From an uncultured delta proteobacterium (GTDB lineage: Bacteria > Desulfobacterota > Syntrophorhabdia > Syntrophorhabdales > WCHB1-27): a stretch of DNA of 64,000 bases. Location: the NCBI GenBank assembly GCA_963810935.1, contig CAWEPK010000010.1, positions 288,001-352,000 on the forward strand, given 5' to 3'. Below, in pieces: positions 18,001 to 21,000 of this stretch. The first letter of the stretch is position 1. Each line of letters starts with the position of its first letter. Made by a program: the position numbers.

Positions 18001-21000
18001 AAACCGGGGTGCCGGCCATGCAGCGGCTTTATGACTACCCAGGAGGACCCCATGACTGACGACACCCCCCTGCTCGACGACCTCGAGAAGGGACCATGGC
18101 CGAGCTTTGTTAAGGAGATGAAGCGGGCTGCAAAGAAGAACCCCGCGGCAAAAGATCTCCTTAAGATCCAGGAGCGCTCCTATCATGACCGGGTAACCCA
18201 CTGGAAGCATGGAGGCATAGTGGGGGTTACAGGCTACGGGGGAGGCGTAATAGGCAGGTACTGCGATGCGCCCGATGACTTCCCATTCGCCGCTGCCTTC
18301 CACACCATGCGGATCAACCAGCCCGCAGGCTGGTTCTACACAACGGACGCCCTCCGGAAGATCTGCGACATATGGGAGAAGTACGGAAGCGGCATGACCA
18401 ACTTCCACGGCTCCACAGGGGACGTCATCCTCCTGGGCACCACCACGGAGAACCTCCAGCCCTGCTTCGACGAGCTTACCGAAGCAGGCTTCGACCTGGG
18501 CGGCTCCGGCTCCGCGCTTCGCACCCCCGCTGGCTGCATAGGCCAGGCCAGGTGCGAGTATGCCAATATCGACACCTTAGACCTTATCTACGACCTCACC
18601 ATGACCTACCAGGACGAGATACACCGCCCCCGCTGGCCCTATAAGTTCAAGATCAAGGCGTCCGGCTGCCCCAACGACTGCGTTGCCGCCATAGCAAGGG
18701 CGGACTTCACGATCATAGGCGCCTGGCACGACTCTCTCCGTATAGACCAGGAAGGGGTAAGGACCTATGTGAAGGATGGTCTGGACATAGACTCCCTCGT
18801 AGTCCGCAAGTGCCCCACCGAGGCCCTTGACTGGGACGGTACTACCTTAAAGCTCATCCCTGAGGACTGCGTCCGCTGCATGCACTGCATAAACACCATG
18901 CCGAAGGCCCTAAGGCCCGGCATAGTCAAAGGGGCAACCATCCTGATAGGCGGCAAGGCCCCTATCTTAAAAGGCGCCAACCTCTCCTGGGTGCTTGTCC
19001 CCTTCATGGAGATAAAACCCCCCTATACGGAAGTAAAGGACCTCCTTGCCAAGATATGGGACTGGTGGGACGAGCACGGAAGGACGCGCGAGAGGGTAGC
19101 CGAGACCATACAGAGGATCGGCCTGAAGGAGTTCCTAAAGGCGGTCGACCTTCCCCCCGTGCCCCAGATGGTCAATAAACCGAGAGCCAATCCCTATGTG
19201 TTCTTCAAATAAGGAGACAACCATGAGAAAGACCGATATAGGACCCCCCGACTTCAAAACGATGCTCCCCGACGTGATCAAGGACAACTACGGCAAATGG
19301 AAGTACCACGAGATCGTAAAGCCGGGCGTCCTCCGCCATGTCTCGGAATCAGGCCAAGAGGTCTACTCCATCCGTGCAGGCTCCCCCAGGCTCGTCTCTA
19401 TAGACTTCATAAGGGACCTCTGCGATGTGGCCGATAAGCACTGCAACGGCCACCTCCGCTTTACAAGCCGCCACAACATAGAGTTCATGACCCCGGACAA
19501 GATCAAAGGTGGAGCCTATTATCGCAGACCTCACAAAACTGGGCCTCCCCATAGGCGGGACGGGCAAGTGCATCTCGAACATCGTCCACACCCAGGGGTG
19601 GATCCACTGCCACAGCGCGGCAACCGACGCATCGGGCATAGTAAAAGCAGTCATGGACGCCTTCCACGACCAGTTCACCGAGATGAAGCTACCGAACCAC
19701 CTTCGGATATCCCTTGCCTGCTGCATCAACATGTGCGGTGCGGTCCACTGCTCCGACCTTGCCATAGTGGGCGTACATACGAAGCCCCCCCGGCCCGACC
19801 ATGAGAGGGTGCTCGCCCAGTGCGAGATACCTACAACCATACAGTCCTGTCCCACAGGGGCGATCCGAAGGCACCCGGATGCTGACATAAAGAGCGTGGT
19901 TGTCCGCGAGGACCTCTGCATGTACTGCGCCAACTGCTTTACCGTCTGCCCGGCCATGCCGCTTGCCGACGGGGATACGGACGGTGTCGCCATTTACGCA
20001 GGGGGCAAGGTGCCCAATGCCAGAAAGCCCCCGATGTTCTCCCGCATGGTAGTCCCCTACCTGCCCAATAACCCTCCCAGGTGGCCCGAGGTAGTGGACG
20101 TCCTCAAGAGGATAGTCGATGTCTATGCATCATCCGCCAGGCCGACCGAGAGACTGGGCGAGTGGATCGAGAGGATAGGCTGGGAGGCCTTCTTCAAAAG
20201 GACCGAGATACCCTTCACCGAGCAGCACATAGACGACTTCACCCATGCAGTGGAGACTTACAGGACTACCACGCAGTTTAAGTGGTAGGGGGAATGATGC
20301 ACTTTCTTCCTTTTTATGAGGGGGTGGCTCCGGCGGCTTCGCCGCTGGAGGGGGCGACGATAGCCCCGGTAATTGCCGACTTTACCCATGTAGTCGAGAC
20401 TTATAGGACTACCACGCAGTTTAAGTGGTAGGGGGAAATGATCAGGAGGTTTAACAATGCCTAAGACAAATTAGGTGGAAAAGAAATAGAGATCGATGAG
20501 GACGGCTTCATCCAGGAGCCGGAGAAATGGAACAAAGAGGTGGCGGAAGACTTGGCAGTAACCGAGCATGCCTCTCCCATGGGAGAGGAACACTGGAAGC
20601 TCGTCAACTATCTGAGGGAATACTACCTCAAGTATGAGATCGCCCCTCCCGTCCGTATGCTGGTGAAGCAGACAGGCTTAGACCTCAAGAAAATATATAC
20701 GCTGTTTCCCGGCGGACCGGCGAAAGGGGCGTGCAAAATAGCGGGCCTGCCCAAACCGACGGGCTGCGTGTAGGGGGCAATACGGCGTGAGTATTTTTCT
20801 GGCCATATTGACCTATTTCGGTTACGTCTTCGTAGTGACCATGTACACGGTCAAGGCCGTGAAGTACGTGAGGCGCCCGCGTCACCTGAGATGGGACCTC
20901 TACCCGGTCATGCACGAGGAGAGGTACCGTTACGGCGGCTCTTATTTCGAGGAGATCAATGGTGCGGCCGGGGCGCGCAAGAAACACCGGCTGCGCAGCA

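Follow-up and report, generated by a model that had tools for sequence, protein, structure and literature searches.

Short hairpin repeats (R) in the genome of this uncultured deltaproteobacterium often lie between two copies, X and X', of the sequence just upstream of them, most often the end of a gene, and we confirm that this X-R-X' layout is a real, rule-bound feature. Of the 90 R copies in this genome that retain an intact 3' end, 24 have an anchored duplicate (score of at least 12), and the same is true of 38 of the 145 copies taken from elsewhere, as against 0.2% of 3000 shuffled pairs; the frequency is similar in size to the one in five (22 of 106) reported in the survey's finding that led to this work. 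Altogether, 345 R copies from this genome, its relatives and metagenomes were scored, giving 85 duplicates; 15 of these (inner array units, duplicates made of repeat sequence, and repeated loci) were left out and 70 cases were retained, which are not fully independent, as the 56 coding cases represent 40 gene groups. X is sense-strand coding sequence, i.e. a gene end, in 56 of the 58 cases that were classed (12 being non-coding or unclear), with the stop codon of the upstream gene lying inside X in 43 of the 58 and in the spacer or repeat in 11. When the genome was searched for short-period direct repeats outside reading frames, 45 of the 65 detected were found to span an R copy. The ends of tRNA genes are also duplicated by R units, and the previously claimed duplicate of tRNA-Arg is real, ARAGORN calling only one tRNA there; the layout also explains spurious calls of second tRNAs and gene fragments in genomes of this kind. 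We consider it close to an even chance (about 0.48) that R spreads by repeat-directed strand transfer of the REP/BIME kind, acting in cis or onto a repeat-less allele.

The duplicated end of dsrB

The window, i.e. the whole 64,000-nucleotide stretch of DNA analysed, contains dsrA, dsrB and dsrC, as identified from ORFs and Pfam matches, and the site under study lies between the latter two, all features described here being on the plus strand. The host gene dsrB (19223..20288; Pfam NIR_SIR) ends within X (20234..20294), the working copy, which comprises the last 17 dsrB codons, the stop and six further bases and is preceded by ATAGA (20229..20233), fitting the family's preference for a junction after GA. 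There follow an 82-base insert (20295..20376) made up of a spacer and a type-i repeat and, directly joined to it, the displaced second copy X' (20377..20437), so that two copies of 61 bases recur with a period of 143 bases ahead of dsrC (20457..20773; Pfam DsrC). The insert folds on the sense strand (fold z −2.9) into three hairpins, placed by folding and covariation at about 20300–20326, 20328–20350 and 20351–20367, and a nine-base tail that runs up to 20376 and ends in TAATTGC, the fixed 3' end of the repeat. A predicted open frame of 45 codons (20294..20431) leads from an ATG through the repeat into X', which it enters in the DsrB frame, and ends at the displaced stop. The window holds a second repeat copy (27316..27435) with an extra 5' palindrome module and without an anchored duplicate.

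The two copies of the dsrB end differ at four positions (20383, 20391, 20395 and 20404; codon positions 3, 2, 3 and 3), three of the changes being silent and one Ala to Val, and the TTT and TAT codons of X' are common to the empty dsrB allele of a relative, G002 (relatives are numbered G001, G002 and so on, the genome under study being G000, and L numbers denote the loci collected). A second dsrAB copy of this genome (contig C8, 662340–664680) shares 98.8% identity over 2342 bases with that in the window (18031–20288); its X and repeat are 100% identical to those of the window copy, and its repeat tail contains an IS200, behind which both X' and the downstream gene differ from those in the window. 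A paralogue may therefore have been the second allele at dsrB and is a possible source of X'. Within a 300-base patch the identity of the two dsrAB copies falls to only 92–93%. Near-identical dsrAB or dsrB copies number two in this genome and three in G001 (C2, C3), their downstream genes differ, and dsrD follows only one of the dsrB copies of G001.

Contigs from four sequencing runs of one study contain both the join between X and the repeat and the form with IS200, an agreement that is not independent because the best-matching run may be the source sample; neither a circle junction nor an empty site was found in these contigs, a negative that carries no weight, and no RNA run was among the sequencing runs listed for this sequence. 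In the present assembly the dsrB frame is broken by one extra base near 19502, and the contigs of all four runs lack a surplus base at 19502 or 19503; dsrC shows an apparent one-base loss near its start (about 20472), a frameshift absent from G001. Both frameshifts are probably assembly errors. Elsewhere in the window, at 50592–50656, there is a perfect 30-base inverted repeat with a 5-base loop.

The repeat family, its junctions and its three states

A profile search (E<1e-3) recovered 144 R copies from the genome, falling into two main types (type-i and type-ii) that are distinguished by their 5' part and the loop of hairpin 3. A strict R pattern occurs in 19 of 21 genomes of the same family and in 13 of the 39 further genomes from the order, and in none of the 290 genomes searched from the rest of the phylum; among the matches listed, the records with R come from Syntrophorhabdales, Syntrophus, Syntrophaceae or uncultured deltaproteobacteria. 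An Rfam search gave no match near a gathering score, and IMG/VR held no exact match to one type-i pattern. Hairpin 2 shows strong covariation with compensatory pairs, and in a tally over pair counts the hairpins contain 48 G.T or T.G cells versus 8 of A.C or C.A, showing that it is the sense strand that folds. The gene lying 5' of R is co-oriented with it in 110 of 152 copies, as judged with a rough gene caller. Of 285 copies, 215 have GAGG and 69 have GTGG as the four bases before hairpin 2, and GTGG precedes hairpin 3 in 159 copies, where it overlaps the 3' arm of hairpin 2. A Ku gene (C12:369416–370411) has outward-facing R copies on both sides.

The junctions follow a set of rules. The start of X' is fixed, nine bases past hairpin 3 and after TTGN, and GA precedes the upstream copy in 36 of 69 cases against a background of 6.9%, a preference seen also in 10 of 20 held-out loci. 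The distance from the start of X to the start of X' is 100–165 bases in 61 of the 70 cases, with a median of 132.5. The longer the spacer, the shorter is X (rho −0.61, n=54; −0.58 among 21 identical pairs), so that the upstream junction is measured from a repeat already in place, and the earlier view that this is no ordinary target-site duplication is borne out by the same relationship. Long spacers bear no resemblance to the downstream flank in 14 of 18 cases. Searching for covariation between a guide within R and the upstream site, we found none, the foot tetranucleotide having no value in predicting that site.

Comparison of orthologous loci revealed three states of the same gene end: R alone (state 1, X-S-R-B, where S is the spacer), tandem units ending in R (state 2, X-S-R-X-S-R-B) and R followed by X' (state 3, X-S-R-X'-B). 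Among the 70 cases, 54 are in state 3 and 16 in state 2, the latter being plain tandem units followed by another repeat, in line with the earlier caution that some cases are tandem arrays. The infA loci of G004 and G012 and a cobN locus have R alone, with 0–4 duplicated bases; near-identical insertions of spacer and R occur at cobN and pal both with and without a long X'; and at one locus the tandem (L285) and X' (L336) states share the same junction. Two or all three states were thus seen at dsrB, the L158/L285/L336 locus, cobN, pal and rpsS (the names cobN, pal, rpsS, purH and hemG were read from translations and are not database labels, hemG matching Pfam Amino_oxidase). At dsrB, one copy of G001 is empty, another has the repeat only and a third is an array of three dsrB ends; the G002 copy is empty; and G012 and G017 have a 5' junction in common and different X' start bases. 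Empty sites, as had been reported for orthologous loci, are present in relatives at dsrB, an acyl-CoA dehydrogenase gene, gyrA, hemG and infA, and the empty hemG allele of G002 continues into the sequence found behind X', indicating that X' and the sequence downstream of it represent the ancestral contiguity.

Two further arrangements were noted. At C8:685623–685819 two 30-base copies of a gene end, 167 bases apart, flank an unrelated hairpin, which represents either this layout in the absence of R or the beginning of a paralogue. In L048 (minus strand, before base 730) R and about 55 bases of unrelated upstream sequence appear to lie in an ABC ATPase gene, interrupting it about 70 bases before its stop; this may represent insertion of a whole unit at a site without homology.

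The proposal that the repeat arrives with a gene end from another allele is supported in part. X and X' are identical in 35 of the 70 pairs, comprising 14 of the 16 tandem cases and 21 of the 54 others, so that import of an allele is not obligatory; infA and tRNA-Arg, formerly counted among the allele-diverged examples, both belong to the identical pairs. Where the copies do differ, the 91 coding differences fall 16, 4 and 71 at codon positions 1, 2 and 3, reproducing on a larger set the bias first seen as 5/4/21, and 71 of the 91 are silent. The third-position share rejects both the one third expected from neutral decay of X' and the approximately one half expected from equal-time divergence (P=4e-8 against one half, a value overstated by kinship, the expectation of one half being our own estimate). 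The same bias is seen among X' copies that lack an in-frame start or are interrupted by a stop (21 of 27; P=0.003 relative to one half). The diverged pairs are therefore two coding alleles, which may have met in one step or through later exchange across R. Their mismatches often begin 1–9 bases from the junction, no identical run exceeds 14 bases in 5 of the 14 diverged pairs, and several cases have an X of only 12–17 bases; a slight excess of long identical runs among diverged pairs (combined P=0.027) leaves room for some crossovers inside X.

In 131 of 160 copies of the type-i repeat a single frame runs open through the core, and 53 copies have an in-frame ATG, whereas type-ii repeats have a stop in that frame. 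Of the 43 type-i cases, 34 have X' joined in the open frame (25 of 33 in the first set and 9 of 10 held out), versus 3 of 13 type-ii cases (Fisher P=0.0004, or P=0.012 with one case per gene), and the GA motif alone predicts only 19–22 of the 43 type-i cases to be in frame. From the sequences we infer that selection may favour ribosomes that end at the old, displaced stop. Against such selection count the lack of coupling between the repeat frame and downstream starts, a coupling that was not enriched (13 of 48, versus 16 and 16 in the other frames), and the frequency of single-base length variants (45 of 160 copies, some of them probably assembly errors). A ribosome-linked cut as the cause of the codon phase is disfavoured because type-ii copies lack the bias.

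How the second copy may arise

Beyond the anatomy, junctions, states and allele-type differences observed above, we infer a chemistry, a step onto a homologue and translation of the repeat as follows. R, itself non-autonomous, would first land just past gene stops, duplicating few or no bases (state 1). Repeat-directed nicking and joining on the sense strand, most likely of the HUH type, would then connect the fixed 3' end of R (TTGN|) to a cut made after GA about 100–160 bases upstream. On the same molecule this would yield a tandem copy of the unit (state 2); on a paired repeat-less homologue, be it from a strain, a species or a paralogue, and with the left side resolved by homology, it would yield state 3, in which X and X' would be two coding alleles, identical only if the partners were. 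Selection would keep those events that leave an intact gene end and, for type-i repeats, those with X' in the frame open across the repeat. Strand transfer is supported by the fixed 3' junction, the GA preference, the limited unit length, the occurrence of several states at one gene end, the identity of 14 of the 16 tandem pairs, the third-position differences, the sense-strand folding, the targeting of R by IS200 and IS110 as of REPs, and the presence of a ComEC gene. Against it are the lack of a Y1 gene flanked by R, the minority status of the REP motif GT(A/G)G, the fact that no single guide is common to the donor end TTGC and the upstream site NNGA, and the consideration that ordinary recombination could also convert state 2 into state 3. 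Should the step onto a homologue prove real, it would let tiny repeats without genes home between lineages and alter the C-termini of proteins; and, since the junctions of the products are readable (a fixed end, a site preference, a limited reach and three states), the R family makes models of repeat amplification directly testable.

A bolder version, which we regard as tentative at most, has the translated three-hairpin repeat direct a host or domesticated enzyme to join it in one step to a homologous allele about 130 bases upstream; the last 5–35 codons of core genes would then be swapped between strains, species and paralogues, with the old gene end parked in frame behind the repeat. It is unlikely, in our view, that the joining step occurs in cis only, giving tandem units from which the second repeat is later removed by recombination with a repeat-less allele or by hairpin-promoted deletion, while later crossovers inside R import a diverged upstream copy. 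That state 2 is common (16 of 70) and shares its junction with state 3 (L285 versus L336) fits this course of events, as do the dsrAB paralogues, in which X and R are 100% alike but X' differs, as an exchange ending at R would leave them, and the slight excess of long identical runs. However, it requires a crossover inside X even in state-3 cases where X has 12–17 bases, mismatches often lie within 1–9 bases of the junction, and state 3 outnumbers state 2 by 54 to 16, though we would expect collapse to state 1 to be easier from state 2.

RecA has a minimum homology requirement of about 20–25 bases, which bears on a mechanism put forward in the survey, namely that X-S-R is released as a mini-circle, which a single RecA crossover within X then inserts into another allele. 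This fits poorly and we hold it to be improbable: the narrow unit size, the arrays of 4–5 units and a weak 10.5-base periodicity of unit length in the discovery set (P=0.008, n=45) would suit a circle, but the periodicity was absent from held-out data (P=0.44, n=17) and was dropped, and identical runs of at most 14 bases, as in 5 of the 14 diverged pairs, like X sequences of 12–17 bases, are short for RecA. A route through RNA, in which a 3' fragment of mRNA from the GA cut to the repeat end is circularized or template-switched by a reverse transcriptase (RT) and recombined into the gene, would agree with folding of the sense strand with G.T pairs, with the predominance of sense gene ends (56 of 58), with the duplication of tRNA ends and with the occurrence of RTs in 17 of 21 same-family genomes. 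It is nevertheless very improbable, as no RVT_1 match was obtained in this genome (93% complete) or in the repeat-rich G002, G011 and G015 (66–87% complete), the bias in codon phase varies with repeat type, contrary to what a ribosome-linked cut would lead one to expect, and import of another lineage's allele is hard to explain. Largely refuted, finally, is one-step insertion with a long, variable target-site duplication of the IS1634 type or the 'long target duplication' class, the copies diverging later. The identity of 35 of the 70 pairs would allow it, such duplications being described in the available part of the relevant report (PMC2853133), and X' often lies in an open frame and could be under coding constraint; but X and spacer lengths are anticorrelated even in identical pairs, in 14 of 18 long-spacer cases the spacer is unlike the downstream flank, a given repeat insertion can be found both with X' and without it, the third-position bias extends to X' copies that are untranslatable, and no terminal inverted repeats were seen in aligned copies.

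Candidate enzymes, related systems and resident insertion sequences

Among Y1, GIY-YIG and RT candidates from this genome and its relatives, no cognate enzyme for R was found. R was present at none of the 20 Y1 loci examined in relatives (a selection out of about 230 matches, in incomplete genomes from which copies may have been lost) and at none of 10 RT loci, and was near 1 of 21 small GIY-YIG loci, the sole GIY-YIG match of this genome being UvrC-sized. The genome's own subclass-2.1-like Y1 gene has no flanking R and is about 19 kb from the nearest listed copy; RAYT, Ssn and RT were rejected as cognate enzymes since they show no association with R. The subclass-2.1-like gene, which encodes 322 residues, is Y1 transposase-like and has short inverted ends (G000:C8, about 712000–712967, minus strand), was found with a custom profile and had no match in the Pfam genome search. 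The genome has eight tyrosine-recombinase matches. Recurrent neighbours were sought in 820 flanks of R, and the 30 largest clusters were, by inspection, housekeeping genes and repeat sequence, with no nuclease. A 1.3-kb multi-copy unit flanked by parts of the repeat, considered as an autonomous parent, was an IS110 inserted inside R.

In the literature searched, most subscription papers and supplements lying outside the search, no description of the X-R-X' layout was found. The closest parallel is with REP/BIME sequences and TnpA-REP (RAYT; E. coli, group 3), which, so far as the accessible text of the sources goes (PMC3333891, PMC8266576, PMC6006769), R resembles as a short extragenic hairpin repeat of about 140 copies with strand-specific folding, tandem amplification and IS targeting. 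R copies are extragenic and have a covarying hairpin, but a conserved GT(A/G)G foot and a flanked Y1 gene are lacking, the foot being a minority form; moreover, R consists of three hairpins in direct arrangement, not inverted doublets, its junctions are TTGN| and NNGA| versus C|T, and the accessible text of these sources mentions neither joining to another allele nor a reading-frame filter. In the portion available of PMC3333891, the model of BIME amplification begins with an upstream nick and resynthesis, after which a further nick is made 3' of the hairpin and the strand is transferred, and its authors expect flanking gene fragments to be captured; the tandem state and flank capture are thus predicted, which speaks for strand transfer of R. 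The in vivo mechanism of REP spread is stated to be unknown in the sections available of PMC3333891 and PMC8266576, and a sequencing study of E. coli REP regions, in its available part, reports finding no circles (10.1101/2024.07.17.603846), which counts against strand transfer.

Other systems match R less closely. IS1630/IS1634 and restriction-modification inserts are described, in the available text, as flanked by direct repeats of 12–105 bases that often overlap gene ends and are slightly diverged (PMC2853133), whereas the R insert is gene-less and about 80 bases long and its duplication is measured from a resident repeat, after the first insertion. The terminal inverted repeats and length-independent duplication of a DDE-transposase MITE are absent from R. 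Ssn with its SRM/NTS hairpins offers hairpin repeats, cleavage of single-stranded DNA and a link to transformation (PMC11893778, accessible part), but several small GIY-YIG genes of the relatives carry CGTC-type hairpins of their own, and no small GIY-YIG gene flanked by R was found; nor was an associated RT, as in a retro-element. RPE, ERIC, YPAL and archaeal MJRE have, according to the portion seen of PMC2229807, an open frame across the repeat that is fused in frame to host sequence, whereas R is fused to the displaced second copy of an upstream gene end and lies behind an intact gene.

IS200 and IS110 are known to target REPs, and both do so with R. The central hairpin of R matches the hairpins at the ends of this genome's IS200, and R has its fixed cut nine bases 3' of a hairpin; however, IS200 inserts after TAAT without duplication, whereas the R junction lies three bases further on, with duplication, and its upstream junction is variable, so that the cut at TAAT/TGAT without duplication of an IS200/IS605 derivative is not what R displays. 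Seven full IS200 copies are present (C3, C5, C7, C8 twice, C12 and C16), four of them at TAAT in the R tail, exactly as first counted. Under the IS608 pairing rule the bases before the hairpins predict the cleavage sites, and TAAA and CAAA before the left and right hairpins of IS200 predict TAAT and TGAT; every insertion, including that of a gene-less mini copy on C12, is after TAAT. All five IS110 copies found (C10, C8, C7, C18 and C20) lie inside type-ii R. The elements at L136:3810–4955 and L139:3870–5050 have at their non-coding end two words matching the target flanks (L136 4840 and 4865), and in the diverged C8 copy, inserted a few bases further on, the words are shifted to match, like the target guide of a bridge RNA.
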